64,000 bases of DNA, taken from positions 27,613 through 91,612 of IMG/VR virus record IMGVR_UViG_3300033412_000004. The stretch is one strand, 5' to 3'. The notes beneath the pieces are model-generated. The model had not been told where the DNA came from and made no database searches. It was given only the letters and a program-made list of their open reading frames with translations. The stretch comes from a virus. Position 1 is the stretch's first letter. The number at the start of each line of letters is the position of its first letter. Of the stretch, positions 12,578 to 63,715 are shown piece by piece. The position numbers were made by a program, and so were the translations under genes.

Positions 12578-12595
12578 TCGAGGATACTTAGATCC

Positions 12596-12832
12596 ATGAG
12601 CAAAACGCTGCTCATGCGGTATATTCGATTGACGTTGGATGAGGCGCACCTGGCAAGGGTGCCGCAGCAGCTGATGTCGCCCACGGATTCGGAAGAAGGT
12701 TCAGAGGATGAGGCTGAGAACGTACAAGAGTTCTCCGGTGTCGGAGCGATCATGGGCTACAGTGCCCCGCTCGGCATGGATCTCGACAAGCTTGGACGCA
12801 AAAAGAACGCGTCGCGTCGGAAGCGGAAGTAA
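12596..12832 (+). CDS. Small late hypothetical protein with leader-like N-terminus
   Basis: MSKTLLMRYIRLTLDE; TACTTA 5 nt upstream; basic C-terminus. Confidence 0.6.
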   Translation: MSKTLLMRYIRLTLDEAHLARVPQQLMSPTDSEEGSEDEAENVQEFSGVGAIMGYSAPLGMDLDKLGRKKNASRRKRK

Positions 12833-12850
12833 CTCAAACCACCGCATGTT

Positions 12851-12932
12851 CTGCGCAGTTGGTAGGGAATTGTACGTTCACGCCACCGTGAACTTTGCAT
12901 AGGCTTCGCAGTACGTTGCTAGAACTGCGCAG
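12851..12932 (+). ncRNA. Putative structured RNA in the 5' leader of the SSB gene
   Basis: Perfect 10-bp inverted repeat CTGCGCAGTT/AACTGCGCAG enclosing hairpin GTTCACG-ccac-CGTGAAC. Confidence 0.4.
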
Positions 12933-12987
12933 GTGCAGTTCAATGACGCGTCCTGCAAGGTAAGGAAAAAGGAAAGAGGAAAGCAAA

Positions 12988-13893
12988 ATGGCAGTAGATC
13001 TCGAGGCGATCCGTCGCCGTGTTCAGGAACTCAGTGGCAACCGCCGCAACTCGAACGTCCAGCTGTGGAAGCCGGGCGTGGGTGAGTACAAGGTCCGTGG
13101 TCTTCCGTGGAAGAACGCTCCCGAAGGCCAACCGTTCATCGAGCGTTGGTTCTACTACATCGGCAACGGCCCGGGCATCCTGGCGCCGCACCAGTTCGGC
13201 AAGCCGGACCCGATCAAGAACCTCATCAACAAGCTGTACAGCTCGGGCAAGCCGGATGACCGGCTCCTCGCCAAGAAGCTGCAGCCGAAAATGCGTGCCT
13301 ACATGCCCGTCATCGTTCGCGGTGAAGAGGCGAAGGGCGTCCAGGTCTGGAGCTTCGGCAAGCAGATCTACCAGAAGTTGCTCGGCTACTTCCTCAACGA
13401 GGAGGTGGGTGACATCCTCGATCCGTCCGAGGGCTTCGACATCAACGTCAGCATCAAGCAGCAGGCTGGCAAGCAGTTCATGGACACCGAGGCTGAGGCC
13501 GCCCGTCGGCCGAGCAAGCTGTCCAACGACGGCGAGGCCGCGAAGAAGTGGCTCGACGGCGTGCCCAACATCGACGACATGTACCGTCTGAAGACGGAGC
13601 AGGAGATCGAGACCATCCTCAACAACTGGCTCAACGGCGGTGACGCTGTGGCTGAGGCGTCGGATGGCACGGCTCGCGGCGCCGACAAGGGCACCGATGA
13701 GCTCGACAAGCTCGTCAACGAGGTGAAGGCGGAAACCAAGCCGTCTGCTCCGACGGCCGAGGCTGCGCCTGCGAAGGCGAACGGCCGCAAGGCGAAGAAG
13801 GCTGCGGATGTCGACATGGACGAAGAGGCACCGAAGGGTGACACCAAGAAGGACCTCGACGCTGCGTTCGACGAACTGATGCAGGACGACTGA
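12988..13893 (+). CDS. Single-stranded DNA-binding protein (T4 gp32-like)
   Basis: WKP..GEYKVRGLP, DPI, VWSFGKQIY, DPSEGFD; acidic tail DAAFDELMQDD; next to recA. Confidence 0.85.
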   Translation: MAVDLEAIRRRVQELSGNRRNSNVQLWKPGVGEYKVRGLPWKNAPEGQPFIERWFYYIGNGPGILAPHQFGKPDPIKNLINKLYSSGKPDDRLLAKKLQPKMRAYMPVIVRGEEAKGVQVWSFGKQIYQKLLGYFLNEEVGDILDPSEGFDINVSIKQQAGKQFMDTEAEAARRPSKLSNDGEAAKKWLDGVPNIDDMYRLKTEQEIETILNNWLNGGDAVAEASDGTARGADKGTDELDKLVNEVKAETKPSAPTAEAAPAKANGRKAKKAADVDMDEEAPKGDTKKDLDAAFDELMQDD

Positions 13894-13902
13894 GGGTAAC
13901 AC

Positions 13903-15583: not shown

Positions 15584-15584
15584 C

Positions 15585-15956: not shown

Positions 15957-15957
15957 C

Positions 15958-16725
15958 CTACGCAGTTTTCTTGGCGCGATCAGGAACGGTCGACATGTCA
16001 CCCGAGTCCTTCTTGGGTCCGATGTTGGCCGTTTTTGCATTTGCAGCGTTGGTTGCGCCTGGCTTGACAGTCGCGGCGTCGGGCGGTGCTGTCTTGCGAG
16101 CCCGGTCCTGCGAGTAGTGCTTCTCAAAGACCTCACCGGTGAAGCCGTAGTCCAACAGGACGACACGCCCATCGGCAGACTTGCCCCAGTGGGTGATTTC
16201 TTTGATGTCGCCGAACATGAGGTCGTTGGCCTTCATCGTTGCCGCCATCGCTTGAGCCATCTCAGACGGATCTTCGACGGGTTCACCTTTGAACAAGGCT
16301 TTGACCTCTTTGATGAAGGTCGTCCAATCGAGCCCAGTTGCGTCAGCGAATTCTTTCTCGTTCTTCAGCTCTCGAACGGCGTCAGAGATGACCCATTTGT
16401 TGTCAGGATCGGCCTTGTGCACCCTGGCGATGATCGCCTTGGTCTCCGGGTTAGTGGCAACTTGGACTTCAGTCTCGTTCTGCGCGATTCCCTTGTTATT
16501 GATCGCGATCTTCAGCACGTACCGCGACGAGAAGACGTAGGCGGCGCGGGAGGACCCTTGGCCCAGCTTCTGGAGGAAGGAGTCCGCGTACGCCAGGAGC
16601 ATGTTCGGGTTGTCGAGCGATTCGAACTTCTTCATGTTGAACTTGTCGCCGAAGGCACTGCCTTTCTTGGTCGACCGGATCTCTCCCACCAACATGGAGA
16701 TGTACTCGCGCAGCACGCTGCTCAT
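15958..16725 (-). CDS. Protein kinase-like protein with N-terminal leader
   Basis: GQGSSRAAY Gly loop, VLKIA Lys, NETE, catalytic GDIK, LLDYG; TACTTA 5 nt upstream. Confidence 0.65.
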   Translation of the reverse strand: MSSVLREYISMLVGEIRSTKKGSAFGDKFNMKKFESLDNPNMLLAYADSFLQKLGQGSSRAAYVFSSRYVLKIAINNKGIAQNETEVQVATNPETKAIIARVHKADPDNKWVISDAVRELKNEKEFADATGLDWTTFIKEVKALFKGEPVEDPSEMAQAMAATMKANDLMFGDIKEITHWGKSADGRVVLLDYGFTGEVFEKHYSQDRARKTAPPDAATVKPGATNAANAKTANIGPKKDSGDMSTVPDRAKKTA

Positions 16726-16780
16726 TCAGCTAAGTAGGCTCTCATGTACTGTGCTACAGATCAGAAGTACCCTTAACACC

Positions 16781-17743
16781 ATGTCACCACCGCGTCCAGT
16801 CCTCATCGTTGACGCGATGAACCTCTTCGTTCGCTCCTATTCTGCATACCCCACGATGTCATCTCACGGGTACCAGATGGGCGGGGCCATCGGCTTCCTG
16901 AAGACCCTGCGACGGATCGTGTCGGAGTGCTCCCCCAGCGCTGTCTATGTGGCCTGGGAAGGCGGTGGTTCATCGAGACGGCGGGCCTTGTTCAGCGAGT
17001 ACAAGCTGAACCGCAGGCCCGAGAAATTGAACCGCTTCTACGAGGACGACATCCCAGACACCGAGGAGAACCGCAGGCACCAACAGATTGCCCTGCTGGC
17101 GATGATCAAGTGTGCTCCAGTCTGTCAGCTGTATGCGTCTGACTGTGAAGGTGACGACGTCATCGCCTACCTATGCCGCGGTCCGATGAGAGGCTCACCC
17201 AAAATCATCGTGTCATCGGACAAGGATTTGTACCAGCTGCTCGACGAAGACACCAAGCTGTACAGCCTGCACAAGAAGACGTACGTCACGCCGGTAGAGG
17301 TGATGGAAGAGTTCCGAGTTCAGTCGAAGAACTTCGCCCTCGCCAAAGCGCTGTGTGGCGACAATTCTGACAACGTGCCTGGCGTCAAGGGCCTCGGCTT
17401 CAAGACAGTCGCCAAGTTGTTCCCGTTCCTCGGCCAACCAGAAGGTGATGTCGTGCTGCAGGATGTGTTCGACTACTGCCACACCCATGCCGATGAGAGC
17501 GTCATCTATCGGCGGGTCCTCGAGCACGAAGAAGAGGTGAAACGCAACTGGCGTTTGGTGTACCTTGACGGATCCATGCTTTCCGCGCAACAGGCTGCGA
17601 AGATTGACCACGCAGTTCAGGCGTTTTCGCCCCACGTGGACAGAATCGGCATGGTCAAACAGATGATCAAAGAGGGCGTCAACGATTTTGACGTTGAGAA
17701 CTTCTTCTACGCCTTCCACTGCATTGAAGGCCTCAGCTTCTGA
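16781..17743 (+). CDS. 5'-3' exonuclease / flap endonuclease (T4 RNase H-like)
   Basis: VDAMNLFVR, YKLNR, EGDDVIA, SSDKDLYQL, GDNSDNVPGVKGLGFKT. Confidence 0.93.
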   Translation: MSPPRPVLIVDAMNLFVRSYSAYPTMSSHGYQMGGAIGFLKTLRRIVSECSPSAVYVAWEGGGSSRRRALFSEYKLNRRPEKLNRFYEDDIPDTEENRRHQQIALLAMIKCAPVCQLYASDCEGDDVIAYLCRGPMRGSPKIIVSSDKDLYQLLDEDTKLYSLHKKTYVTPVEVMEEFRVQSKNFALAKALCGDNSDNVPGVKGLGFKTVAKLFPFLGQPEGDVVLQDVFDYCHTHADESVIYRRVLEHEEEVKRNWRLVYLDGSMLSAQQAAKIDHAVQAFSPHVDRIGMVKQMIKEGVNDFDVENFFYAFHCIEGLSF

Positions 17744-17751
17744 CAGGAGAA

Positions 17752-19206
17752 ATGATGAGTGACGAGCGAACCGCAGCACCGGGCGCCAAGGCGTCTTTTG
17801 GCACCTATGGCAAGAGCTTCCAAGAGAAGATCATGCAAGCCTTGCTCTCCGACCGGCCGTGGGCCGAGCAGATGTTGGAGGTCTTTGACGTCCAGTACTT
17901 TGAGCTCAGGTACCTGCAGTTCTTGGCGGACCGCTACTTTGGTCACGCCAAGAAATACAAGGTCTTTCCCACGCTGCAGCTTTTGGTCACCATCATCCGT
18001 GATGAGCTGAGGGCAGGTACGGACATCATCCTGCGTGACCAGATCATCGACTACCTCCAACGGATGCGGTCCAATCCCGATCCGGGCGACCTGGCCTACG
18101 TCAAAGAGAAGGCACTCGACTTCTGCCGCAAGCAGGCGTTGAAGCAGGCGCTGGAGAATGCCGTCGACGACATCGCTGCCGAGAAGTATGAGCAGATCGT
18201 TGAAGGTATCAAGAAGGCGGTCTGCGTCGGCACCACGCCGCAGCTGGGCCACGATTTCTTCGCCGACTTTGACGCCCGGTTCACCCGCCTCCAGCGCAAC
18301 TGTGTGCCCACTGGCCTCGACGAGCTCGACCGCAAGGACATCCTCAACGGTGGCCTCGGCGCCGGAGAGATCGGCGTCATCGTGGCGCCCACCGGCGTGG
18401 GCAAGAGCCACATGTTGACCTTCCTGGGTTGCAACGCCCTCCGCGCTGGCATCGACGTGTTGCACTACACCTTCGAGCTGTCGGAGGCCGCAGTGGGTCG
18501 TCGGTACGACTCCAACCTGTGTGATGTGGACTCCAACGACGTCATCGACAAGAAGGACTCCGTCATCTCCCAATACAAGGACATGAAGTTGGGTCGGCTC
18601 ATGATCAAGGAGTTCCCGACTAACACGGCGACGATCTACACGCTGCGTAGCCACATCGAGCGACTCGACCTGAAGGGCTTCCGACCCGGCGTCATCATCA
18701 TCGACTACGCTGACATCATGCGTTCAACGCGACAGTACGACTCGCTTCGGCACGAGCTGAAGTTGATCTACGAGGAGCTGCGTGGTTTTGCCGGTGAGAA
18801 GATGCTGCCCATCTGGACGGCGTCGCAGTCCAACAAAGAGGGCGCCAACCAGGAAGTCGTCGACCTGGGCAACATGAGCGAGGCCTACGGCAAGGCGATG
18901 GTCGCGGACGTGGTGCTCAGCATCTCCAGAAAGGCCCACGAAAAATCGGACGGTCAGGGGAGGCTGTTCATTGCCAAGAACCGCGCCGGGCGCGACGGCA
19001 TCGTCTATCCGGTCCACATTGACACAGCCCGCAGCAAGTTCGCCATCGCCGGGCGCGCCGCCAGCCCGGAGGACACCGCCAAGGACGACGAGAAGGTGAT
19101 GAAGAAAGCGCTCAAGCAGAAGTGGAATGAGCTACAGCGCGATCCCTCTCTCGGCAGCGGAACCCCCAGCGACGGGTCCGACGAACCCAAGGGTTCGAGC
19201 GAATAG
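17752..19206 (+). CDS. DnaB/gp41-like replicative helicase
   Basis: APTGVGKS, TFEL, IIDYAD, TASQ, KNRAG. Confidence 0.93.
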   Translation: MMSDERTAAPGAKASFGTYGKSFQEKIMQALLSDRPWAEQMLEVFDVQYFELRYLQFLADRYFGHAKKYKVFPTLQLLVTIIRDELRAGTDIILRDQIIDYLQRMRSNPDPGDLAYVKEKALDFCRKQALKQALENAVDDIAAEKYEQIVEGIKKAVCVGTTPQLGHDFFADFDARFTRLQRNCVPTGLDELDRKDILNGGLGAGEIGVIVAPTGVGKSHMLTFLGCNALRAGIDVLHYTFELSEAAVGRRYDSNLCDVDSNDVIDKKDSVISQYKDMKLGRLMIKEFPTNTATIYTLRSHIERLDLKGFRPGVIIIDYADIMRSTRQYDSLRHELKLIYEELRGFAGEKMLPIWTASQSNKEGANQEVVDLGNMSEAYGKAMVADVVLSISRKAHEKSDGQGRLFIAKNRAGRDGIVYPVHIDTARSKFAIAGRAASPEDTAKDDEKVMKKALKQKWNELQRDPSLGSGTPSDGSDEPKGSSE

Positions 19207-19292
19207 TTATGACCTGCACACAACTGAGCCGCGCATGGCCCAGCGGCTCCCTGCGAATTTTGCTGCTGGAAGTTCAGGAGAGAGCGATCTAG

Positions 19293-21773: not shown

Positions 21774-21798
21774 TACTTATCGCCCAGAGGTGTCGTCG

Positions 21799-22296
21799 AT
21801 GAAGCTCACTCCACGCATGGCTAAGGAGATCAATTCCATCGTTCAGGAAGAGGTACAAGGTGCCCTGGAGGGTCGCCGCCTGGCTGAACGAATCACTCGC
21901 AAGGTCGATCAGAAGCCTGTCAAGCTGAACAAGCTGCAGCTGCGGTCGTTGCTCCGAGAGGCGATCCAGGGCAGGCAGCCCGGTGAGCCCGAGCCGTTCC
22001 AGATGACCGAGAAGTTCGGCGCCTACGACGTTGAGAACCGCTACGACATGGGCGAGGAAGAGCCCATGATGCCTCACAACTTCGAGGCCACCCACAAGGA
22101 GCTGTTCAGCCAGGCGCTGGACCCGGTGGTCGGCGAGTTCGTCGAAGGGCTGATGGAGATGTACGATGCCGGCTTTGCCCCTGAAGGTCGTGAAGGCGCT
22201 CGCAAGGCGTGTGAAGCGGCTGGCCAGGAGATGAAGGCCGAGCTGATGTCGGTCATCGAGAAGTGGCTCGAAGAGGGCATCGACAGGATCGTCTGA
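21799..22296 (+). CDS. Late hypothetical protein with leader motifs
   Basis: MKLT..INSIVQEE and KLQLRSLLREA; TACTTA at 21774; SD GAGGTG. Confidence 0.65.
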   Translation: MKLTPRMAKEINSIVQEEVQGALEGRRLAERITRKVDQKPVKLNKLQLRSLLREAIQGRQPGEPEPFQMTEKFGAYDVENRYDMGEEEPMMPHNFEATHKELFSQALDPVVGEFVEGLMEMYDAGFAPEGREGARKACEAAGQEMKAELMSVIEKWLEEGIDRIV

Positions 22297-22562
22297 TGAA
22301 GATGCGCGTCGGCGATCTCCGACGGGTGATCCGCGAAGAATTCATGCGCGGCGTCCCCGAGTGGGCACTTCGACAGGCGACGTCGAAGTACGTAGAGGAG
22401 ATCCGTCAACACGTCAAGACGTTCATCATGATGAACAAGTCCCAGACAGGAGAAGGTCAGAAGGAAGCCATCGCGGCGGCCAACCTGGTCCTCGAAGAGT
22501 TGGAGGACGAGACCTACGATCTTCTGGAAGATAAGCTGTACCAGTTCATCAGGAGGGTGTGA
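22296..22562 (+). CDS. Hypothetical protein with LRRVIREE leader
   Basis: MKMRVGDLRRVIREE; TGATG translational coupling. Confidence 0.7.
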   Translation: MKMRVGDLRRVIREEFMRGVPEWALRQATSKYVEEIRQHVKTFIMMNKSQTGEGQKEAIAAANLVLEELEDETYDLLEDKLYQFIRRV

Positions 22563-23374
22563 TGCAGAAGATGACGTTGCTGCTTGAGAGCCAGCCTCGT
22601 TACGCTGGATTTTGGAAGGCATCCGACGGCAAGTGGTACCTCGACATGGCCGACCACCCGGAACCCGAGTCGGAGTACGACGAGGACGGTGAGGAGCGCG
22701 ATTACTACGGCCCCGAGGGACAGTATGAGGACTCGACGACGTACGGTCCTTTCCCCTCGCAGCAGGCGGCTGATGACTTCATGAGCTCCAACTGGGCCAA
22801 CCCCGGCTCGTTTTACGAGGACGACTCCGGCAAGAAGCCACCGCCCAAGAAGAGCCCGAACGGCAGGCCCATTGAGTCGCCTGGTTCCTCAGGTCGCCGC
22901 AGTGGCGTAGGCTACTACGGCTTCGGCGGCAGCTATGGTTCAGGCGGATTTTCAACCGGAGCGCGTGACTACTTCACTCGGCCGTCGACTCCCAAGCCGG
23001 CGGCCGCTCCGGCCCCTGCACCGAAACCCGCCGCAGCAAAGCCCGCGCCCGTCGCGCCCGCGGGAAAAGCGGCGCAACCGCCTGCGAAACAAGCTGAAAA
23101 GCCCAAAGGTCCGAAAACAACTTACAAGGTCTACAACGGCACCGGCACGGGCAAGGCAGTGACCGGATCATCGCCCATCCACACGCGGATCAAAGGCAAG
23201 GTCTACGCTCCCACGGGCATCAGCAAGTTCAAGCCCAATGACAAGGCGAGCGTGGCAATCGATCCCGACGGCAAATCGGCGAAGGTAACCGACGGCGACC
23301 GCTCGCAGGTGTGGACGCACCGCGAGGCGTTTGAGCAGCTGATCGGCGAGTTCATCGAGCTGATGAACGACTGA
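22562..23374 (+). CDS. Hypothetical protein with Pro/Ala linker and shared C-terminal YKVY domain
   Basis: C-terminal domain also present in 45173 and 48243 proteins. Confidence 0.7.
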   Translation: MQKMTLLLESQPRYAGFWKASDGKWYLDMADHPEPESEYDEDGEERDYYGPEGQYEDSTTYGPFPSQQAADDFMSSNWANPGSFYEDDSGKKPPPKKSPNGRPIESPGSSGRRSGVGYYGFGGSYGSGGFSTGARDYFTRPSTPKPAAAPAPAPKPAAAKPAPVAPAGKAAQPPAKQAEKPKGPKTTYKVYNGTGTGKAVTGSSPIHTRIKGKVYAPTGISKFKPNDKASVAIDPDGKSAKVTDGDRSQVWTHREAFEQLIGEFIELMND

Positions 23375-23699: not shown

Positions 23700-24626
23700 A
23701 TGGCATACGGAGCGAGAGTTCTTGCGGACAGCGTTGCGCTGCACAGGTGGCCCAATCGCGTGGAGCAAGGTACGCGGCTGACGACGATCGAGGTGACGTT
23801 CCCTCGGATCGTATTGGCGGAATTCAACACGCACCGCGTCTTCAGTCGCAACAGCGCCTCCAGTCGGGCGATTCCCGTCGAGAAGCGCATCGCCGCCGTC
23901 GAAGCTGATCCCTTCGTTCCGGAGGTGTTTGGCAAGAATCAAAAGGGCATGCAGGCCAGTGAGAACCTCAGTGAAGAGGACGCTGACATGGCCCGACAGG
24001 AATGGATGTTGGCGTGCAAGGACGCCGTCTATCGCGCCAGGCAGTTGGCGGCCCGCGGCGTCCACAAGCAATTGGCCAACCGCCTGATCGAACCGTTCTG
24101 TTGGCACACTGTCATCGTCACCGCGACCGAGTGGGAAAACTTCTTCGCGCTGCGGTGTCACCCCGACGCTCAACCCGAAATTCGGGTCGCCGCCGAGTGG
24201 ATGCAGGCCGTCTACGACCAGAGCGTCCCCCAGGAGCTCGACGAGGACATGTGGCACCTGCCGCTGCTCCCCGACGCGCCGCAGCTGCTGAGCGAAGGCT
24301 ACTCGATGGCCGACCTGTGCCGCATCAGCGTCGGTCGCTGCGCTCGGGTGTCGTACCTGACCCACGACGGTCGTCGAGATCCGTCGGCCGACCTGGACCT
24401 AGCGGCGAAGCTGCAGTATTCAGGTCACATGAGCCCGTTTGAACACGTGGCACGTCCCATGAACCGCAGCGAGTGCGAGTACAAGTACGGCACTCACGGC
24501 GAATTCGTCGGAGACAACATGACGCCCCAGAAGAACTTCTGTGGCAACTTCAAGGGATGGATTCAGCTACGAAAAGAGCTGCCCCATGAGGACAACTTCC
24601 GCGAGGCGATGCTGGCGAGGGATTGA
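23700..24626 (+). CDS. thyX: FAD-dependent thymidylate synthase (ThyX/Thy1, phage type)
   Basis: EFNTHRVFSRNSASSRAIP, HKQLANRL, LRCHPDAQPEI, RCARVSY, HMSPFEH. Confidence 0.88.
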   Translation: MAYGARVLADSVALHRWPNRVEQGTRLTTIEVTFPRIVLAEFNTHRVFSRNSASSRAIPVEKRIAAVEADPFVPEVFGKNQKGMQASENLSEEDADMARQEWMLACKDAVYRARQLAARGVHKQLANRLIEPFCWHTVIVTATEWENFFALRCHPDAQPEIRVAAEWMQAVYDQSVPQELDEDMWHLPLLPDAPQLLSEGYSMADLCRISVGRCARVSYLTHDGRRDPSADLDLAAKLQYSGHMSPFEHVARPMNRSECEYKYGTHGEFVGDNMTPQKNFCGNFKGWIQLRKELPHEDNFREAMLARD

Positions 24627-24638
24627 ATAGGTACTGCC

Positions 24639-26586: not shown

Positions 26587-26847
26587 ATGTCACAATTGAA
26601 AATCGCAGACACCGTCTGGCACCGAGTCGTGCAGATCATTCAAGAGGCAATGTTGGAGGGCGTCGATTGCGCCGACCTCCTGCGCCAGGTCCGGGTCGTC
26701 CCGGATTCATCGGATCCGCACGTTTTGACGCTATCGCCGGAGTACGAGCACCAGGTCAAGGAGATGCACGACAAGCTCTTGGCACGAGCGGAGGAGCTGC
26801 AAGCTGCTCAAAAGCCGAAGCTACTTATCGGCGATGGGAACAACTGA
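26587..26847 (+). CDS. Hypothetical protein
   Basis: 86 aa; SD GAGGAG. Confidence 0.65.
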   Translation: MSQLKIADTVWHRVVQIIQEAMLEGVDCADLLRQVRVVPDSSDPHVLTLSPEYEHQVKEMHDKLLARAEELQAAQKPKLLIGDGNN

Positions 26848-28227: not shown

Positions 28228-28257
28228 ACCCGGCGTCCCGCGGTGTAGTGTCACCGC

Positions 28258-29747: not shown

Positions 29748-29779
29748 ACACCGGCGCTGCCGGGGAGTAGGTTGTGCGC

Positions 29780-39819: not shown

Positions 39820-39833
39820 TGTAGTATCGGTGG

Positions 39834-43181: not shown

Positions 43182-43194
43182 CTAGTTACCAGTC

Positions 43195-43422
43195 GTGAGG
43201 ATCACTATCGGCGAGCTCCGCCGCCTCATTCGTGAGGTGTCCGAAGACAACGTTTGGGGCGGTTCAAACCCCGAGGAGATGTACGAGGAGGAGCTCGCTG
43301 ATGATCCTGCGCTCAAAAAGAAGAGCGTCTACGTGCCCGATGACATCAAAGACAGCATCGGGCACTGGATGAAGGCTATGGGCCTGTCTCACTCCAAGAA
43401 GAAGCGCTCGCGTTCCGCCTGA
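43195..43422 (+). CDS. Small late protein with LRRLIRE leader
   Basis: MRITIGELRRLIREV; TAGTTA 6 nt upstream. Confidence 0.7.
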   Translation: MRITIGELRRLIREVSEDNVWGGSNPEEMYEEELADDPALKKKSVYVPDDIKDSIGHWMKAMGLSHSKKKRSRSA

Positions 43423-43455
43423 GTATGATACTTACGGAACAGGAGTCTTCTTCAC

Positions 43456-44619
43456 ATGCGTCTGAGGCTACAGGAGCTGCAGAAGGTCGTCAAGAGGGCG
43501 ATCGACGAAGAGAAGGCAACTGAAGTCCTCAGGACCGAAGTTGCCAGAGTGCTTGGGCCGTCCGTCGTGACCGAAGGTAGGGTCGTCGAACAGGTCGCCG
43601 AGGCAGCCAACGAGAGAATCGCCGTCCTTGACAGGACAGGACGTGGAAACCGGATCGACTTCAAACCGTCGACCGTCGTTCCCTTCCTCAACCACAAGAA
43701 TCCCGAGGTTCGCAAATTTGCGGCCCGGGTGTTGCCCGAGAAGTTCGTTGCCCAATTGCGCAACGACCACAGCGCGGCAGTCAGGGCAGTCGTCGCCGCC
43801 AGGTTGCCGCTGCCGCAAGTCCGGGAGATGATGCGTCGTTTCCCGCAGGATGACCAGCTACGGACGGTGTTCCGCAAGCGCCGCCTCGCTGAGGCAGGCA
43901 TCAAGAAGCCTGAGGAACAGCCGCTGGGCCACGATCCCGTCGAGGACGCAGAGCGCCTGGGCGACGCTGTCAAGCAGGCCGATGGCCCCGAGCTGAGCGA
44001 ACAGTGGTACAAGGACAAGGCCGCATGCTTCATGCAGGACTACGGTGGCAACATCGAGTATGCATGGGAAGAGCTGGCGGTGAAGCAGTACGTGATGTCA
44101 GCCCGCCAGACGTCGCTCGTCGAAATCGATGAGGCGAAGCTGCTGAAGGCCATCAAGGAAGCGATCAAGGAGCGTGAGGACCGTGCCATGGAGCGTGATG
44201 CTCTGCGGGAGACGTTGTCCTGGCTCAAGGCCGAAGAGGAAAAGGAACTGCTCGTCGAGCAGACGCTTCCGGTGCTCGATGAAACAGTCGATGAAGTCAG
44301 CGACCTGCTGGCGTCGAACGCCACATCGTCCGAGTACATCGACCGCGCCAACAAGATTTTCACTGTCCGTGAATCGACGCTGCCGGCAGCGATCAAAAAG
44401 CACCGCCTCGGCGAAGAGAACAATCGCCTGGAGCAGGTACCGATGGTGGGCAGACTGCCCCACGCTCGAGGCTTCCGTGCCATCGATGAGCGTGCACTGG
44501 ACCTCTACTGCAAGTACTGGAACGACCGGCAGATGCTGCGCGGCGAACCGTTGAAGCTTGAGTGGTCGTGCCACCCGGACGAGGTCGGCAAGGTCAGCTT
44601 TTCAACCATTCTGAGGTGA
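43456..44619 (+). CDS. Late hypothetical protein with HEAT-like segment
   Basis: MRLRLQELQKVVKRAIDEE; NPEVRKFAARVL / SAAVRAVVAARL; TACTTA at 43429. Confidence 0.7.
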   Translation: MRLRLQELQKVVKRAIDEEKATEVLRTEVARVLGPSVVTEGRVVEQVAEAANERIAVLDRTGRGNRIDFKPSTVVPFLNHKNPEVRKFAARVLPEKFVAQLRNDHSAAVRAVVAARLPLPQVREMMRRFPQDDQLRTVFRKRRLAEAGIKKPEEQPLGHDPVEDAERLGDAVKQADGPELSEQWYKDKAACFMQDYGGNIEYAWEELAVKQYVMSARQTSLVEIDEAKLLKAIKEAIKEREDRAMERDALRETLSWLKAEEEKELLVEQTLPVLDETVDEVSDLLASNATSSEYIDRANKIFTVRESTLPAAIKKHRLGEENNRLEQVPMVGRLPHARGFRAIDERALDLYCKYWNDRQMLRGEPLKLEWSCHPDEVGKVSFSTILR

Positions 44620-44621
44620 AA

Positions 44622-45176
44622 ATGGGCAAGCGGCGCCTGATCGAATCGATGGAGGTGCAGCTGGTGATGGACCACAACGTGGACATCGCCTCTGACAACA
44701 TGCTATCTGAGTGGGGGTCAGTTCCCTACGGTCAGTTGTCATTGCTGTTGGTCCACCTGCGCTTCCTCGCTCACGTCCACCAGACTCACCACTGGACCTG
44801 CAAGGGTGATGCCTTCTTTGGCGACCACCTGATGTTCGAGAAGCTGTACAACCAAACGATCGAGGACATCGACGCAATCGCTGAAAAGGCCGTCGGCCTC
44901 GGTTCCGAGGAAACGGTGGGCCTGCCGCTGCAGGTGAAGCAATTGGCTCGATTGACAGAGCAGTACGGTTCATCGCTGACCATTCCGAGAGCTGGTGAGT
45001 TGGCGAGGCGGTCAATGACGGCAGAGATCAACTTCCTGAAGATCGCGGCCAACATGTCGTGTTCGCTGAAGGAGGCGGGCCTGATGACGCGCGGCCTCGA
45101 CAACCTGTTGGCGGGCATTGAGGACCGTCACGAAGGTCACGTCTACTTCCTCAAGCAGAAGTGCGGTGGACAGTGA
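44622..45176 (+). CDS. Dps/ferritin-like protein
   Basis: QTHHW..KG..FFGDHLMFEKLY....DAIAE. Confidence 0.75.
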   Translation: MGKRRLIESMEVQLVMDHNVDIASDNMLSEWGSVPYGQLSLLLVHLRFLAHVHQTHHWTCKGDAFFGDHLMFEKLYNQTIEDIDAIAEKAVGLGSEETVGLPLQVKQLARLTEQYGSSLTIPRAGELARRSMTAEINFLKIAANMSCSLKEAGLMTRGLDNLLAGIEDRHEGHVYFLKQKCGGQ

Positions 45177-46003
45177 AGCTGACGCTGGGCCAACTACGAA
45201 CCGTTCTTGCCGAAGCTGATCCTCGTGATCCTGAGCTGGCGGCGATTCCGCCCGAGGTCAGGATCCGCTCTGTTTCTCACGGAGCGACGCCTGGCGACAG
45301 GAAGACGAGGACGTGGGTCGGCAACCGCGATCAAGTCAACATCGGTCTCATCATGACCGACATGCCTCGTGAAGACCGGCTTGCGGTCCTCCGCGGTGAC
45401 AAATCGATCGGCGACAAGGCGCTGCAGGTGTTGAAGAAGCGCGGCGCTGTCACGTTGGATAAGCCGCCCGCGGCGCCGAAGGCACCGGCGGGTCCCAAGC
45501 AGCCGCGCTTGACTCGTCAAGGTGCTGAGAACAGGCTGTCGGCTGCCATCAAGAGCTTTGCCAGGAACTGGACGAACTTCACCCAAGAGATGCCGGACGT
45601 GCAGCCTGAGGACGCCGCCTGGGATGCTGCCGGTGGTTTCTTCTACGAGTATCCCGAGTGGGAGAAGTGGGTCCGCGCCATGTGGGACCCGTACGGCTTC
45701 GACAAGCGATTGACGAAGACTGAAGTCCAGGAACGCGTCGCTGACTACGTCCATGACGCAATGATGAAAGGCGCCGAGCGCGCCGCCAAGCAGAAGCCCA
45801 AGGCACCGCCGAAGGAGACCTACAAGGTCTACGGCAAGCTGAAGGGAGCGCCCGCTCACACGCGAGTGAAGGGCAAGGCCTACTTGGCGCCGGCTGACAC
45901 ACAGTTCAAGCCGGGTGAGCCTGCGGTCGCAACGCCGGACGGCGGCAAGTTGTCTGTCAAGAAGAAGGATTCAGACCACACGCAAGTGTGGGAGCCTGAG
46001 TGA
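45173..46003 (+). CDS. Leader-bearing protein with shared C-terminal YKVY domain
   Basis: MKLTLGQLRTVLAE; GTGA overlap. Confidence 0.7.
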   Translation: MKLTLGQLRTVLAEADPRDPELAAIPPEVRIRSVSHGATPGDRKTRTWVGNRDQVNIGLIMTDMPREDRLAVLRGDKSIGDKALQVLKKRGAVTLDKPPAAPKAPAGPKQPRLTRQGAENRLSAAIKSFARNWTNFTQEMPDVQPEDAAWDAAGGFFYEYPEWEKWVRAMWDPYGFDKRLTKTEVQERVADYVHDAMMKGAERAAKQKPKAPPKETYKVYGKLKGAPAHTRVKGKAYLAPADTQFKPGEPAVATPDGGKLSVKKKDSDHTQVWEPE

Positions 46004-46399
46004 TCACTTCTTGGGCTTGATGCCCTTGTTCTTCATGGACCAGGCGACAGCCCAGGGGTTGTCGACGCTCTTGTCCTTTTTGAGGCCCTTGACGACCTTC
46101 TCGTAACCGGGAGGTGCCTTCTCCTCGATGGGGACATCACCTTCGTGTTGAGAGCAGCCTTGATCCATCTGTGTCGGCATCATGCCGCACTGAGCGCAGC
46201 AGCCGTCGCCTTCTTTGACGACGTCGGGGTCGCTCCACTCACGGTCCTTCTTGGGCTCATCGTTCCACAATGCCTTGCCGTCGGGGCCTTCATCAGGGAT
46301 GCCAGCCGTGGACGGCTGCTTACCAATGGGCTCTCCGAAGCGCTCGAGGAGCATTGAGTAGATTTTCAAAGTCGCTTCATCGGTACGGCGCTTCGTCAT
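46004..46399 (-). CDS. Late hypothetical protein
   Basis: TACTTA 5 nt upstream; C-terminal KAPPGYEKVVKGLKK..VDNPWAVAW. Confidence 0.65.
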   Translation of the reverse strand: MTKRRTDEATLKIYSMLLERFGEPIGKQPSTAGIPDEGPDGKALWNDEPKKDREWSDPDVVKEGDGCCAQCGMMPTQMDQGCSQHEGDVPIEEKAPPGYEKVVKGLKKDKSVDNPWAVAWSMKNKGIKPKK

Positions 46400-46450
46400 G
46401 CGAGTAAGTATCTTGTACAGGTGGGCCTGAATTGGCCTACGATCTGCGCC

Positions 46451-46795: not shown

Positions 46796-46807
46796 TAGGG
46801 TTGTCGA

Positions 46808-48231: not shown

Positions 48232-48237
48232 TAGTTA
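48232..48237 (+). promoter_or_regulatory. Example of the putative late promoter TA(C/G/A)TTA
   Basis: TAGTTA 5 nt before ATG; AT-rich motif recurring before leader-bearing genes. Confidence 0.55.
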
Positions 48238-48242: not shown

Positions 48243-49241
48243 ATGCGGTTCAGGATCAGTGAGCTCCGCCAGCTCATCAGTGAAGCCCTTCGAAAGGCGT
48301 ACGAGATCTTGGGTGTGAGCCCGGATGCTAGCGCCGAGCAGATCAAGAAGGCGTACCGTGAAAAGGCGATCGCGCTGCATCCTGACCGCAATGCTGGCAA
48401 GGACACAGGAGCTGACATGGTCAAGCTCAATGTGGCCTACGGACTCCTGTCCGACCCTGACAAGCGCCGCAAGTACGACCTAATGGGCGACAAGACCCTG
48501 GGTGATGCAGGGGGCGGATTTGGCTACGGTGGGCCCCCGCCGCCGCGGCGACCCGATCCCTACTCACCTCCGCCTCGTCCGCGTCCTCAGCCTCCGCCGC
48601 CTCGTCCGCAATCACCGCCCCCGCCGCGTTCGACGAAGCGCTATTTCACCTACTACGGCTCGTCGCCGGGCGGTCGTGGCTCTCGCAAGTTCTGGTGGGT
48701 TGAACCCAACTTCGACGGCAACTACAGCGTCAGGGTGGGCTTCGGTCGCATCGGGTCGCCGGGCCAGACGCAGGTCCAAGGCTTCGGCAGCAGCTCGGAG
48801 ATGTGGAAGTGGTTGTCGCGGATGATCAACTCGAAGCTCGACAAGGGCTACCGCGAGACCAACGCCCCGCCGGGCGGCGGTCCCGCACCGCGCAATGCTG
48901 CACCCCCTCCGCCTCCTCCGAAGGCGAAGGCAGAGCCCGCGCCGGGTCCGGAGAAGCCCAAGGAGCCATCGGCTCCGCGCGATCCCAACACCTACAAGGT
49001 CTACGGTCGCAAGGGAAGCGCACCAGTTCACACTCGATACAAGAGCAAGGTCTATGTCGGTCCGCCCGACAGCAAGTTCAAGTCGGGCCAGCGCGCCACC
49101 GTTGCCTTGGGCAGCGATGGCCGCCTCAGCATCCATGACCCCGCAACGGGTCACACGCAACATTGGACGGCAGAAAGCTTCGCCGCGCTCATTGATGAGC
49201 TGTTGGTCGAGGACTTGCTTTCTGTCGGCCGAAAGGAATAG
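48243..49241 (+). CDS. J-domain + WGR-like domain + shared C-terminal domain protein
   Basis: Leader MRFRISELRQLISE; YEILGV..IKKAYR...HPD; KFW...FGRIG..GQ...KLDKGY; YKVY domain. Confidence 0.85.
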   Translation: MRFRISELRQLISEALRKAYEILGVSPDASAEQIKKAYREKAIALHPDRNAGKDTGADMVKLNVAYGLLSDPDKRRKYDLMGDKTLGDAGGGFGYGGPPPPRRPDPYSPPPRPRPQPPPPRPQSPPPPRSTKRYFTYYGSSPGGRGSRKFWWVEPNFDGNYSVRVGFGRIGSPGQTQVQGFGSSSEMWKWLSRMINSKLDKGYRETNAPPGGGPAPRNAAPPPPPPKAKAEPAPGPEKPKEPSAPRDPNTYKVYGRKGSAPVHTRYKSKVYVGPPDSKFKSGQRATVALGSDGRLSIHDPATGHTQHWTAESFAALIDELLVEDLLSVGRKE

Positions 49242-49249
49242 TTACTGTC

Positions 49250-49564: not shown

Positions 49565-49593
49565 TGTAGCTTCGAGGCCGCGCGGGGTAAGAT
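49565..49593 (+). promoter_or_regulatory. dnaE promoter (leaderless class)
   Basis: TGTAGC-N17-TAAGAT-N5-ATG. Confidence 0.6.
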
Positions 49594-49598
49594 GCGGC

Positions 49599-55970: not shown

Positions 55971-56501
55971 GTGAGCTGTTACTGCGGTGACAAGGACTGT
56001 CCTCAGTGCAACCCCGAGGCTAAGAAGCGTTTCTGGCCCGAAAAGGAAAAGAAGTCGCCGCTGGAGGGTCTTGCAGAAGCGTTGAAGAAGATGACTCCTG
56101 AAGAGAAGGAGAAGTGGCGCAATGAAGCCTTGGAGCGAGCCAAGAAGGCTCGCGAGGACGAGGAGCGCAAACGCAACGAGCCTCCCAAGTCAAAGACTGG
56201 GACGTGCGTCGTCTGCCGCGGCAAGGTCGAGGGTGAGTATGTCCACGGTCTACGTCCAGGAGTGGACTCGCGCTTCGTCCCAATCGGCCCGGGCGGTCGC
56301 CAGTACTACGGTTGGCAGTTCAAGGGGTACCACTGCACTCGGTGCGGGCTCTCCTACAAGTTCCCACCGCCAGACGGAATAATTACTGGTCAGGGAGACG
56401 CGCATGAAACTGTCGGACCTTCGGAAACTGATCAAGGAAGAGATCGAACAAGCCCTCGACGAAGCAGAAGGGGCAGGAAAGTCAGCTCCGAAGACGTTTG
56501 A
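55971..56501 (+). CDS. Hypothetical Cys-rich protein
   Basis: Several CxxC motifs; 3' end overlaps next gene. Confidence 0.55.
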   Translation: MSCYCGDKDCPQCNPEAKKRFWPEKEKKSPLEGLAEALKKMTPEEKEKWRNEALERAKKAREDEERKRNEPPKSKTGTCVVCRGKVEGEYVHGLRPGVDSRFVPIGPGGRQYYGWQFKGYHCTRCGLSYKFPPPDGIITGQGDAHETVGPSETDQGRDRTSPRRSRRGRKVSSEDV

Positions 56502-57237
56502 GGAGTTCCGCAAGGCGATCGGCGCCGCGGCCAAACAGGCTGGCGCTCCTGAGGACTTCGTTGATGAAATCCTCGACGTTGGCTACGAGGGTGGTGGCGT
56601 AGCCTCCGCGTTGGGCAGCGGCTGGAACAACTACTCGTACGAGCTGCGCGACATCAAGGACCCCGCTGAACTGTGGGACACCTTCATCTACTACGCTCAC
56701 GATGCGATCGTTGACGCTGTCGGCGAGTACACGAATGCATGGAACTACGCTCCGGGTCGAAAGGCCGGCGGACGCTTCGACGCTGGTGACTTGGCGGGCC
56801 GGGTCGAGAAGATCTTGAGCGGTGCCAAGATGAAGCGCGCCGACAAGGGTCCGCTGAAGCGGGTGTCAGGCGACATCAACGCGCAGGACATCATGTCGAA
56901 GCTCGCGGCGATCATGAAGAGCGAGTCCAAGACGACCAAGACCCGAATGGGCAAGGTCTCCGGCAATGCCAGCTCGAATCCGGCGCTGGACATTTCTGAT
57001 CCGAAGGTCAAGGACGTCAATGGGATGATGGCCTTTGCGTCCGAGCAGGTCGCCAAGATTCTGACGGAGCTGGGCTGCATTGACGTCAAGGAGCACAACG
57101 TCGGCGGTGAAGACGCAGGCGTCACGGCGAAGGTCCATGACGTCGATTCAGGCATTCGCAAGAACATTTATGTGGACTTCGAGAACGTGGGTCCGGGCAA
57201 GATGCGTGTCTGGGTCGGTGTTGAGGAAGGCCGCTGA
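56404..57237 (+). CDS. Late protein with LRKLIKEE leader
   Basis: MKLSDLRKLIKEEIE; TAATTA at 56380; SD GGGAG. Confidence 0.7.
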   Translation: MKLSDLRKLIKEEIEQALDEAEGAGKSAPKTFEEFRKAIGAAAKQAGAPEDFVDEILDVGYEGGGVASALGSGWNNYSYELRDIKDPAELWDTFIYYAHDAIVDAVGEYTNAWNYAPGRKAGGRFDAGDLAGRVEKILSGAKMKRADKGPLKRVSGDINAQDIMSKLAAIMKSESKTTKTRMGKVSGNASSNPALDISDPKVKDVNGMMAFASEQVAKILTELGCIDVKEHNVGGEDAGVTAKVHDVDSGIRKNIYVDFENVGPGKMRVWVGVEEGR

Positions 57238-58220: not shown

Positions 58221-58222
58221 AG

Positions 58223-59166: not shown

Positions 59167-59171
59167 CGTTC

Positions 59172-59717: not shown

Positions 59718-59718
59718 C

Positions 59719-60866: not shown

Positions 60867-61023
60867 TGCTCGCGGTCCCAACCTTCTGGAGCGAATCCTG
60901 TTGGGCATCACTTGCATTGGGCACTGCTCGGGCAATGACCCCGCTCACCAGCGGCACTGCGCTGAGACTTGTTGGCCGCGTGATCGATTGAAGATCACAC
61001 TCCGCCTGCCGTAGGTTGGCGAC

Positions 61024-61281
61024 ATGGCACGCAAGAAGCAAAACCCCGGTGCGGAGCGTCGGTCGCTCATTGCGCAATACAAGCGCGAAGGATACGAACG
61101 TCTAGCATTTGACTCCGAGGACGAAGCGAGTGCTTTCATCGTCGGGCTCGACACTGGACGTGATGCGTACAACTCGAACCTCGAGGCCGAAACCCTGCCT
61201 CCCGTCAAGGGCAAGAAGCCCGAGTGGACGGTGTGGTACAAGGTCGAACACTACGAAGAGGAAGAATTCGGGTACCCGTGA
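61024..61281 (+). CDS. Hypothetical protein
   Basis: 85 aa; promoter immediately upstream. Confidence 0.6.
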   Translation: MARKKQNPGAERRSLIAQYKREGYERLAFDSEDEASAFIVGLDTGRDAYNSNLEAETLPPVKGKKPEWTVWYKVEHYEEEEFGYP

Positions 61282-62426
61282 TGCGTATCCCATTTCAGAT
61301 GGTCTTGCCTGAGGACCTGTGTGGCCTCGCTCACGTCTTCCACCAGACAGGCAAGCAACTCTACGTCGTCGGCGGCGCAGTACGCGATGCGGTGCTGGGC
61401 AAAACGCCCAAGGACTTCGACGTGGCGACGGACGCCACGCCTGACGAAGTCATCGAGCTGCTGCGGCCCATCCTTGCCTGGCGAGTGTTGGAAGTCGGCA
61501 AGGCCTTCGGAGTCGTTCGCGCCCGCCTGGATGGAGGCGACTACGAGTACGAGATCGCGACCTTTCGCCAGGACATCGGCGAAGGCCGACGACCCGATTC
61601 CGTCGTCTTCACCACCATCGAGGAAGACGTCAAGCGCCGGGACCTGACGATCAACGCGCTGTTCTACGACATCAACAAGGCCGAGATCGTTGACCTGGTT
61701 GGCGGTTTCGACGACCTCAACGACCACATCATCAGAACGGTGGGCCTACCCGAGGACAGGTTCCGTGAGGACCGGTTGCGGGTGCTGCGAGCGATTCGCT
61801 TTGCGTCCAAGTTGGGCTTCACCCTCGAGTCGAGGACGTTGGAGTCGATCGAAAAGGACAACAACCTCGACGGCGTGTCGTTCGAGCGAGTCCGCGATGA
61901 GATGGTGAAGGCGATCCAATCCGCCAAGAAGCCCCGCCGGCTGATCACGCTGTTGGACCAGTTGAAGATGTGGCCGAGGGTGCTGCCGGGCCTCGCAGTG
62001 ACGCCCGTGCCCGATACCCTGGTGTCCAGCTCCAGCGTCGAGACGTGCAATGTCGCTGTCGCCTTGGCGATACTGCTGGACCTCAATGCACCGGAACACG
62101 TTGCCAAGCGACTCAACCAGCTGAAGTACAGCGCCGCTGAAGTCGCCCAGGTGACGTTCCTGCTGCGATTCCGCGACATCACCCCTTTCAATGCGTACCG
62201 GCTGTGGCGCTCATACGGAACGTCACACCTGATGTCAGAAGATCTGATCGAGTACGCTCGCGAGCGCGGGCTGCCTGAGTCGCGGATGCTGAACACGTTC
62301 CTCAACTACTCACCGATCACGACCGGAGATCAACTGCTCGCAGAAGGCTTCACTGGATCCGCGCTGGGAAATGAACTTGCCCGGCGGGAGACGGTACGAT
62401 TCTGCGAACTGCATGGTGAACACTGA
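61281..62426 (+). CDS. cca: CCA-adding enzyme / tRNA nucleotidyltransferase
   Basis: VGGAVRD, DFDVAT, EIATFR, RRDLTINAL, EDRLRVLRAIRF. Confidence 0.88.
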   Translation: MRIPFQMVLPEDLCGLAHVFHQTGKQLYVVGGAVRDAVLGKTPKDFDVATDATPDEVIELLRPILAWRVLEVGKAFGVVRARLDGGDYEYEIATFRQDIGEGRRPDSVVFTTIEEDVKRRDLTINALFYDINKAEIVDLVGGFDDLNDHIIRTVGLPEDRFREDRLRVLRAIRFASKLGFTLESRTLESIEKDNNLDGVSFERVRDEMVKAIQSAKKPRRLITLLDQLKMWPRVLPGLAVTPVPDTLVSSSSVETCNVAVALAILLDLNAPEHVAKRLNQLKYSAAEVAQVTFLLRFRDITPFNAYRLWRSYGTSHLMSEDLIEYARERGLPESRMLNTFLNYSPITTGDQLLAEGFTGSALGNELARRETVRFCELHGEH

Positions 62427-62967
62427 AGAACGCAAGGGAGGGTGGATCTGCACCTACACGGGCAAGCGCTTCTACCCGCTCGATCCTCGTCTTGAGGAAA
62501 TCGACATCAACGACATCATCCACGCGCTGTCGAACCTGTCACGGTTTGCGGGCCACGCCACCAGCTTCTACTCGGTGGCGCAGCACTGCGTCTTGGTGTC
62601 TCTCGTCTGCGATCCACAAGATGCCTTGTGGGGTCTGCTGCACGACGCCAGCGAGGCGTACTTGATCGACGTACCATCGCCCCTGAAGAAGTGTCCGGAG
62701 TTCGACTTCTACCGAGTCGCCGAGAAGGGTCTGATGGACGTCATCTGTGACAAGTTCGGCCTGAGCCACGACGAGCCGCCCTCAGTAAAGTTGGCGGACA
62801 AGAAGGTATTGGCTACTGAAGCCCGGGACCTGACAATGACTGAGGGCCGCGGGTGGGCCACAGAGGCCGAACCGCTTGAGTTCCACATCAAGCCCTGGAC
62901 ACCTGAGGTGGCCCGGGTCAAATTCGTATCGCGACTCCACGAACTGATGCTGAAGAGGGCTGCATGA
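62413..62967 (+). CDS. HD-domain 5'-deoxynucleotidase (YfbR-like)
   Basis: DIIHALS...RF.GH...YSVAQH...LLHDASEAY..D. Confidence 0.85.
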   Translation: MVNTEERKGGWICTYTGKRFYPLDPRLEEIDINDIIHALSNLSRFAGHATSFYSVAQHCVLVSLVCDPQDALWGLLHDASEAYLIDVPSPLKKCPEFDFYRVAEKGLMDVICDKFGLSHDEPPSVKLADKKVLATEARDLTMTEGRGWATEAEPLEFHIKPWTPEVARVKFVSRLHELMLKRAA

Positions 62968-63434
62968 GCGTTGCAAAGACTGAGCCGATGGGAATCGTTC
63001 CTGAACGTCCGACGTGGCCTGAAACTTGGATGCAGGTCGCCAAGACGATGGCCGAACGGTCGTACGATCCTCGCCTCAAGGTGGGTGCCATCATCGTCAG
63101 CGCTGACAACACGCAGATGCTGTCGGTGGGCTACAACGGCAACTACAAGGGAGGGCCGCACCTGCACGAGTCCACAGAACCCGGCAAGAGCGGGTTCATC
63201 CACGCCGAGATCAACGCACTGGTCAAGTGCGACTTCAACTTTGGCAAGAAGAAGCACATGTACGTGACCCACAGCCCGTGCCGGGACTGTGCCAAGCTGA
63301 TCATCAACGCCGAGATCGCGAGGGTGGTCTACGACATCCCGTACCGCGATCCATCAGGACTCGACCTCCTACGATCGGTCGGGATTGAGGTGCTAAGCGT
63401 CGGGGAGGCCATACTTATCGCCAGGTCGCGATGA
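62964..63434 (+). CDS. dCMP deaminase
   Basis: VGA, GYNG, HAEINA, PCRDC. Confidence 0.9.
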   Translation: MSVAKTEPMGIVPERPTWPETWMQVAKTMAERSYDPRLKVGAIIVSADNTQMLSVGYNGNYKGGPHLHESTEPGKSGFIHAEINALVKCDFNFGKKKHMYVTHSPCRDCAKLIINAEIARVVYDIPYRDPSGLDLLRSVGIEVLSVGEAILIARSR

Positions 63435-63715
63435 GGGAACTGCAACAGGAAGACGTCATTCGCATCATGCGAGAGGAGTGGGGCAAAAAGGTCTCAGCGC
63501 TCCAGGAGACGGTGGACCTTGCTTTTAGCTCCAAGGTGAACAAGGACGGCGAAAAGCCCATCCTGGCGCCGGAGTTGAAGGTGATGCACAGGAACAGCGG
63601 CATCCGCTACACTGTGTCGTCCGTCGGACCCCGTGACATCATCTTGAGGACGCCGGAAGGCGAAGATTTCCTCGTCGACAAGGAGACGCTGGAGGCTGAA
63701 TATGAGCTCGACTGA
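63431..63715 (+). CDS. Late hypothetical protein with leader
   Basis: VIRIMREE; TACTTA at 63412. Confidence 0.65.
   Translation: MRELQQEDVIRIMREEWGKKVSALQETVDLAFSSKVNKDGEKPILAPELKVMHRNSGIRYTVSSVGPRDIILRTPEGEDFLVDKETLEAEYELD

Follow-up and report, generated by a model that had tools for sequence, protein, structure and literature searches.

The 91,612-bp IMG/VR contig IMGVR_UViG_3300033412_000004, whose last 64 kb constitute the window analysed here (positions refer to the window unless given as genome positions), encodes twelve proteins that begin with a 14-residue tag, M-K/R-L/I-T-x-x-Q/E-L-R-x-L/V-I-x-E, six of them within the window. To judge from its sequence, this class-1 tag is most likely a longer form of the T4 signal that directs proteins into the head and is then removed, and it is probable that it represents a lineage-specific, lengthened version of the T4 capsid-targeting sequence (CTS) and propeptide. 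A first-pass annotation had grouped eleven N-terminal leaders on proteins of the window, noted an AT-rich hexamer upstream of their genes or operon heads, and proposed that the leaders load diverse enzymes into the phage head. The observation is confirmed. The capsid-loading interpretation is the best available and is partly supported, as the phage is related to T4, the tag occurs directly after the protease gene in relatives and ends in I/V-x-E, and the hexamer is present at virion genes, whereas the kinase and SOD-like cargo proteins that formed part of the proposal were not found.

The class-1 tagged genes upstream of the window are A (genome position 10152) and B to F (genome positions 22138, 22392, 22762, 23618 and 23911, respectively); those within the window are G (22296), H (43195), L (43456), I (45173), J (48243) and K (56404). 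Leave-one-out scores for the twelve tags range from 7.5 to 22.5. A 7-residue core pattern, picked after inspection of the data, occurs 13 times in the six-frame translation, with eight of these occurrences positioned 5-7 residues past a gene start against 0.007 expected. When a matrix derived from this genome was applied to four relatives (35-53% GC), 4-13 matches were obtained in each, nearly all at or near an N-terminus, compared with 0.05-0.3 in each shuffled proteome. Genes were called with our own codon-usage scorer and, because some starts were miscalled, some tags within the first 17 residues were scored as internal. The peptide persists across genomes of 35% to 59% GC, and where two of the twelve tags have an identical residue, the codon is also the same in 0.438 of pairs, compared with the 0.442 that codon usage in the genome predicts. 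Synonymous codons are as random as in the genome at large, and the constraint is therefore on the peptide and not on the RNA or DNA. The logo from 113 independent tags reads M-K-I/L-T-K-R/S-Q-L-R/K-R/K-I/L-I/V-K/R-E-E/A, with L8 present in 96%, I, L or V at position 11 in 99%, I or V at position 12 in 99% and E14 in 88%, and conservation stops after residue 15. The tag thus ends in hydrophobic-x-Glu, as does the T4 protease site, with A and L as the exceptions in this genome. With the tags trimmed, the twelve proteins are unrelated, as had been claimed, except for a C-terminal module of ~65 residues common to A, I and J. Charged and hydrophobic residues alternate in the tag and there is no hydrophobic run, which does not fit a Sec or Tat signal peptide (criterion, a core of at least 10 residues after a basic N-region).

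Tagged genes are more numerous in relatives. In G005, a complete 293-kb genome with terminal repeats and 339 called genes, there are at least 30 class-1 tagged genes, of which 21 are arranged in a single tandem array (46.6-57 kb) and a further seven lie at 284.5-286.5 kb; only two pairs of the encoded proteins have similarity beyond the tag. A strict back-translation of the tag matches at least 120 stretches in IMG/VR, with up to 11 copies per stretch among the matches listed. A literature search for the tag strings found no paper with this tag.

As judged from its genes, the contig, for which CheckV estimates ~25% completeness, is part of the genome of an uncultured soil jumbo myophage in the T4 superfamily, distantly related to T4. 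This assignment is made because the top cultured matches of its sheath are T4-type phages (~30-35% identity), and because related IMG/VR contigs reach 150 kb and those of more distant members, G005 included, 293 kb. The contig has two tandem tail-sheath paralogues of ~1000 aa each and a gp15-like sheath stabiliser; its tube protein matches T4 gp19, and there is a tape-measure-like gene of 1700 aa. The tandem duplication of the sheath gene, here at genome positions 16011-19031 (1006 aa) and 19079-22123 (1014 aa), is present throughout the lineage. Near-identical sequences are found in soil and rhizosphere metagenomes, and a DNA search of the whole window against GenBank phages gave no match. 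Records place an identical J protein on a contig of 357,674 bp, so that public assemblies probably include a near-complete genome of this phage. The 'moraphages' described in 2025 (PMC12619734) are jumbo phages of aquatic origin that have T4-like virion genes and encode a sigma factor and DnaK/DnaJ; the paper makes no mention of the tag, and these phages may include genomes like that of G005.

A head module that includes a prohead protease is present in the relatives. G002 has genes for a gp17-type terminase, a gp20-type portal, a Peptidase_S77 protease and a gp23-type capsid protein in T4 order, and the protease shares 42-44% identity with the gp21 proteins of cyanophages and the Flavobacterium phage immuto. 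Peptidase_S77 genes are present in G002, in G005 and in 80 IMG/VR head modules of relatives, which were collected with the G002-type protease and scored for the tag by matrix. In many of these 80 modules, the two genes directly after the protease gene encode proteins that start with the tag, MKLTKSDLKQIVKE followed by C and MKLTSQLLRRIIEE followed by E. The capsid protein of the relatives starts with MSKKFTLEQLTE followed by G and so has the first half of the tag, and the large protein encoded at the scaffold position starts with MSKNLYNEAIAE followed by AKQLRE. Head-module proteins of this phage group, namely the products of the post-protease genes, the capsid protein and the scaffold-like protein, carry N-termini related to the tag, those of the capsid and scaffold-like proteins being of the T4 style. 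Among the matches listed, eight tag-bearing contigs also appear in the protease list. A tblastn search with two tagged head-module proteins of the relatives found nothing in cultured phages. Two further features of these modules were noted, an intein with an HNH endonuclease domain in the gp20-type portal gene of G002 (L049, 1075-4233) and two gp23-type capsid genes in tandem in G005 (176269-180150).

The tagged genes also have an upstream element in common with virion genes. In an unbiased ranking, TACTTA is the top hexamer 1-45 nt upstream of genes, at 10 genes versus 0.36 expected (p ~5e-12). It again tops the ranking in G002, and in G001 it takes third place, directly behind TAGTTA in second, while AT-rich relatives use TATTTA or TAATTA. 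The element is therefore TAnTTA, often with GA or A in front. Both sheath genes, the tube gene and a 1005-aa virion-region gene have it upstream, and it also heads baseplate-region genes. Its position is conserved in a relative of 47% GC, and the distance to the gene is maintained in G002 orthologues, for example 21 nt before the second sheath gene in both genomes. The association of motif and leader that had been proposed is borne out, as all 12 tagged genes lie no more than three genes downstream of a TAnTTA site, whereas this holds for 38 of the 91 others (p 8e-5, Fisher test); the site is directly upstream of 5 of the 12 tagged and 14 of the 91 other genes (p 0.04). The motif is designated 'late' because of the virion genes it accompanies; no RNA runs were listed as holding the stretch. 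It had also been described as nearly absent before replication genes, and the genes for gp32, RecA, helicase and polymerase have none immediately upstream, with only a TAGTTA 83 nt upstream of the ribonucleotide reductase gene, but a TACTTA (26822..26827, +) is located 6 nt before a dUTPase_2/MazG-like gene at 26834.

The individual promoter-like sites are TACTTA at 12585..12590 (+), 16731..16736 (-), 21774..21779 (+), 43429..43434 (+), 46405..46410 (-) and 63412..63417 (+), TAGTTA at 43183..43188 (+) and 48232..48237 (+), and TAATTA at 56380..56385 (+). Three sites were missing from the earlier list: that at 26822, a TACTTA at 4427..4432 (+), 41 nt before the 1005-aa virion-region gene, whose G002 orthologue has TACTTA 7 nt upstream, and a TAGTTA at 49239..49244 (+), 5 nt before an 86-aa gene. 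Site and start are separated by 5-6 nt in 8 of 19 motif-headed genes, and because the motif is then so close to the start codon this spacing suggests leaderless mRNAs. Separately, a TAnnnT element (TAGGGT, TAGTGT, TAGTAT or TAAGAT) stands 5-7 nt before the start codon of many non-virion genes, as at 24625-24638, 28240-28257, 39815-39833, 46790-46807 and 49580-49598, a spacing that suggests that leaderless transcription is widespread and uses another -10 element, of the host type. As to a late sigma factor, which the first-pass annotation had expected, there is no phage sigma factor on this contig, and phmmer searches with gp55 of T4 and P-SSM7 gave no match in six genomes, including the complete G005, although phmmer can miss distant homologues. 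Searches with T4 gp22, gp67, gp68 and gp45 likewise gave no match in these six genomes. Six relatives (G004 to G009) do encode one sigma-70-family protein each with regions 2-4, namely L161 (G005, 256676-257494), L077, L159, L160, L162 and L163.

In T4, the gp21 protease cleaves after L/I-X-E, the first 10 residues of IPIII are enough for incorporation into the head, and targeting has been assigned to the early residues and processing to the last (PMC9026906). T4 propeptides are 10-20 residues long (PMC5694885), and the internal proteins of T-even phages have only the CTS in common (PMC3012670). A T4-type reading fits the present tag because of the phylogeny, the tag beside the protease gene, the ending that resembles a cut site, the sharp end of conservation and the promoter in common. 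If the tag functions in this way, the TAnTTA promoter, which also drives virion genes, would express a variable set of tagged proteins late in infection. The first half of the tag (K-I/L-T-x-x-Q-L), as in the major capsid protein, would then dock this cargo onto the scaffolding core of the prohead, and the gp21-type serine protease would cut after the Glu of I/V-x-E (residue 14) to release the mature protein inside the head. Some of the released proteins could be core or scaffold parts and others could leave the head together with the DNA when the phage next infects a cell. Late timing, targeting, cleavage, packaging and ejection of the tagged proteins are all, as yet, predictions.

The closest known counterpart is the T4 CTS of IPI, IPII, IPIII and Alt, which is removed by gp21. 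Both are short N-terminal peptides on unrelated proteins that end in hydrophobic-x-Glu (PMC9026906, PMC3012670), and both occur in the T4 superfamily with, in the relatives of this phage, a gp21-type S77 protease. The genes are scattered and each has its own late-type promoter, as for T4 ipI-III and alt, and head proteins (capsid, scaffold-like and core-position gene products) have related N-termini. In the T4 genome (NC_000866), gp22 begins with MLKEQLIAE, gp24 with MAKINELLRE, IPII and IPIII with MKTYQEFIAE and Alt with MELITELFDE. The tag differs in its 14 residues and its consensus, compared with 10 residues in T4 (MKTYQEFIAE), in the dozens of tagged genes per genome, some of them in tandem arrays of up to 21, compared with about four to eight in T4, and in the existence of a second tag class. 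The changing payloads behind a conserved tag resemble the variable CTS-bearing internal-protein genes of T-even phages, which have been interpreted as an arsenal in an arms race (PMC3012670, PMC9026906), but on a far larger scale and in an uncultured lineage from soil and aquatic samples. In the jumbo phages phiKZ, 201phi2-1 and SPN3US, many head proteins are also cut C-terminal to Glu by a gp21-related protease, and the propeptides are believed to direct proteins into the prohead (PMC5694885, PMC9026906). In those phages, which are not close relatives, the motifs are S/A-x-E, the propeptides are mostly longer than 100 residues and there is no single peptide in common. The T4 late promoter TATAAATA is read by gp55, gp33 and gp45. 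TAnTTA is similarly a short AT-rich element of the -10 type with no evident -35 element, upstream of virion and scattered cargo genes, but its sequence is (G)(A)A-TAnTTA rather than TATAAATA, no gp55 homologue was detected and the relatives have a sigma-70-family protein.

Several observations weigh against capsid targeting and cleavage. There is no head module and no Peptidase_S77 prohead protease on this ~25%-complete contig, so that the protease identified beside gp20 and gp23 in the relatives would presumably be encoded in the missing 75% of this genome. No cultured phage with the tag was found, and the tag is known here from sequence alone. Genes B to F are located among tail genes, between sheath and tube, and outside any head module. 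A and L do not have Glu14, and position 14 is variable across the L family. The models of L and J predict that the tag runs into a longer helix rather than being a detached peptide. None of the tagged proteins looks like an internal protein known from T4, and no similarity between A and Alt was detected. The P3 residue is mostly I or V, compared with L or I in T4, and endings of the form hydrophobic-x-E are short and frequent in amphipathic helices.

Other explanations share part of this evidence. The tag might target the prohead on proteins that are not effectors but assembly parts, core or scaffold components similar to T4 gp67, gp68 and gp22, that are degraded and expelled during maturation. 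Small proteins encoded directly after the protease gene carry the tag in the relatives, B, C and D resemble T4 gp67 in being small and acidic, and most tagged proteins have no recognisable enzyme domain. Nevertheless, J (J-domain and WGR domain) and A (weak ADP-ribosyltransferase-like matches) resemble effectors, and the at least 30 mostly unrelated tagged proteins per genome far exceed the needs of a scaffold, so that we regard this explanation as unlikely, albeit the strongest of those considered here. Slightly less likely again is a tag that is not cut by the head protease and serves in tail or virion docking, in recognition by a phage chaperone or unfoldase, or in timed turnover. Such a role would be in keeping with the location of B to F among tail genes, with the longer helix predicted to include the tag in two models, and with the DnaK and DnaJ encoded in the wider lineage, to which DnaK, DnaJ and ClpA reported in possibly the same group (PMC12619734) may be added. 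It does not account for the recurrence of the tag beside the protease gene, for the first half in common with the capsid protein or for the gp21-type ending in 88% of 113 tags.

The conserved sequence could, in principle, act as nucleic acid, either as an initiation signal for leaderless late mRNAs, given that the motif is only 5-6 nt from the start codon of several tagged genes, or as a recombination site for cassette swapping, given the tandem arrays. This was rejected by the codon analysis, synonymous sites being random (0.438 versus 0.442 expected); moreover, the peptide is kept from 35% to 59% GC and most tagged genes have ordinary Shine-Dalgarno sequences, which leaves this explanation very improbable. 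More improbable still is the idea that a modifying enzyme, for example a maturase of the radical-SAM family, recognises the tag as its leader. No Radical_SAM (PF04055) protein is encoded in G000, G001, G002, G005 (100% complete) or G006 (96%), even though G005 has at least 30 tags, and this proposal was also rejected. Capsid targeting followed by cleavage remains the preferred explanation for the tag.

The gene starts and motifs in the first-pass annotation are all positioned as given there, with one correction: the leader LRSLLRE is not at a gene start but internal, at ~21919-21963 of the gene at 21799, and no start codon precedes it. The eleven leaders do not form one set. Those at 22296, 43195, 43456, 45173, 48243 and 56404 have the class-1 tag; two (12596 and 16725, minus strand) belong to a separate class and three (21799, 63431 and 46399, minus strand) are weak, as detailed below. 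G (22296..22562, +; 88 aa) starts with MKMRVGDLRRVIRE followed by E, is the second gene of a TACTTA-headed unit, and its orthologues in G001 and G003 retain the tag. H (43195..43422, +; 75 aa) has a GTG start and the tag (M)RITIGELRRLIRE followed by V, and is also tagged in G001; its TAGTTA is only 6 nt upstream, which suggests a leaderless mRNA. I (45173..46003, +; 276 aa), with a GTG start and the tag (M)KLTLGQLRTVLAE followed by A, has the common C-terminal module, and K (56404..57237, +; 277 aa) has a tag that is two residues shorter, MKLSDLRKLIKE followed by E. No Pfam, PHROG or protein-atlas lead was obtained for I or K, and the SOD-like cargo that had been predicted was not found.

The J protein (48243..49241, +; 332 aa) has the J-domain and WGR domain that the first-pass annotation had listed for its putative cargo. 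The tag is followed by a J-domain (DnaJ, 3e-20, from residue 19), a WGR domain (6e-11), the fold of which was confirmed by a search with the model (Z 11.9), and a C-terminal beta module. All 11 of 11 J orthologues start with MRFRL.ELR.LISE followed by A. The tag appears to behave as an add-on, because in J it precedes a complete J-domain while the DnaJ genes of relatives have no tag and start directly with the J-domain. These DnaJ and WGR matches were the only ones obtained with Pfam for the tagged proteins, and PHROGs gave nothing for B to K. The module common to A, I and J is beta-rich, with a predicted local distance difference test score (pLDDT) of ~84, and its fold matches (Z 5.5-6) are too weak to interpret. 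Its sequence (..TYKVYGK..HTR.KGK..HTQ.W.PE) is located at 45800-46003 in I, 48975-49180 in J and genome 11409-11594 in A, and it is also present at 23120-23314 in an untagged gene (22559-23374) directly downstream of G.

L (43456..44619, +; 386-387 aa) has a variant tag, MRLRLQELQKVVKRAIDEE, and is a conserved repeat protein of the ARM/HEAT-like type; its 132 homologues have the common N-terminus MRLxLxxLQxVVK, in which L8 is invariant. In the AlphaFold model (pLDDT 84) the tag lies within a helix of residues 3-33, and a fold search gave only generic ARM/HEAT repeat matches and hence no kinase. The untagged gene between L and I (44616..45176, +; 186 aa) encodes the protein previously described as Dps-like cargo. 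Its match to ferritin (PF00210) scores 23.8 bits, just below the cut-off of 24.5, but its N-terminus, MKMGKRRLIE, is not a canonical tag.

A second class of tag, distinct from class 1, has the sequence M..LREYIxxLxxE (also written M..LREYIRxLLxE) and likewise ends in hydrophobic-x-E. It is present in two genes of this genome, 12596..12832 (+; 78 aa, MSKTLLMRYIRLTLDE) and 15958..16725 (-; 255 aa, MSSVLREYISMLVGE, with a coding-type GC profile), both with TACTTA 5 nt upstream; the G002 orthologue of the former has TACTTA 6 nt upstream. G005 has 12 class-2 copies, clustered near the contig ends (193-3798 and 282961-293400). The gene at 21799..22296 (+) is weakly tagged, with the N-terminal sequence MKLTPRMAKEINSIVQEE, and its internal tag, VKLNKLQLRSLLRE followed by A, is at residue 43; a similar G003 protein starts directly with MKLTPNMLRGLIKE followed by AIQ. 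Two further genes are weak candidates. That at 63431..63715 (+; 94 aa, ..VIRIMREE) has TACTTA 13 nt upstream, with TAGTTA at the same 13 nt in its G002 orthologue, and that at 46004..46399 (-; 131 aa, ..KIYSMLLE) has TACTTA 5 nt upstream. Internal copies of the tag are also present at residue 165 of a 259-aa G005 open reading frame (50981-51760) and, in the G001 orthologue of C near 123112 (-), after a Cys-rich N-terminal extension. Such internal copies may mark fused units joined at a protease site.

The remainder of the window includes replication and metabolism genes encoding a gp32-like single-stranded-DNA-binding protein, RecA, a DnaB-type helicase, a class I ribonucleotide reductase and a DnaE-type polymerase, together with two sugar epimerases and a thymidylate-synthase homologue. 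A gene set of the RNA-repair type, at 28258-31311 and 61278-62426, encodes an RlaP nucleotidyltransferase, a polynucleotide kinase-phosphatase (PNKP) and an enzyme of the CCA-adding/poly(A)-polymerase family. Upstream of the window, a patatin-like phospholipase (Pfam 2.6e-29; L001, genome 8382-9254) is encoded among virion-region genes in a gene run that starts at a TAGTTA site.

A bolder and more doubtful extension of the capsid-targeting interpretation is that these phages have an enlarged, plug-in system for virion cargo. About one-tenth of the genes in the complete genome (at least 30 class-1 plus 12 class-2 of 339) would then bear an address tag, with the class-1 tag mimicking the N-terminus of the capsid protein for docking to the scaffold, payloads turning over as cassettes in tandem arrays and internal copies marking the protease-cut joints of fused proteins. 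In that case, sequence alone would suffice to tell which proteins uncultured jumbo phages of the T4 type inject. If the tag functions as in T4, it already provides a sequence-only list of proteins packed into the head and probably injected, and these would be prime candidates for anti-defence and host-takeover functions. The TAnTTA element offers a handle on late transcription in a lineage with no recognisable gp55, and tag and protease together would be a natural means of packaging proteins in phages that infect other hosts. The few internal proteins of T4 would then be the small end of a strategy that extends to about one-tenth of a genome.

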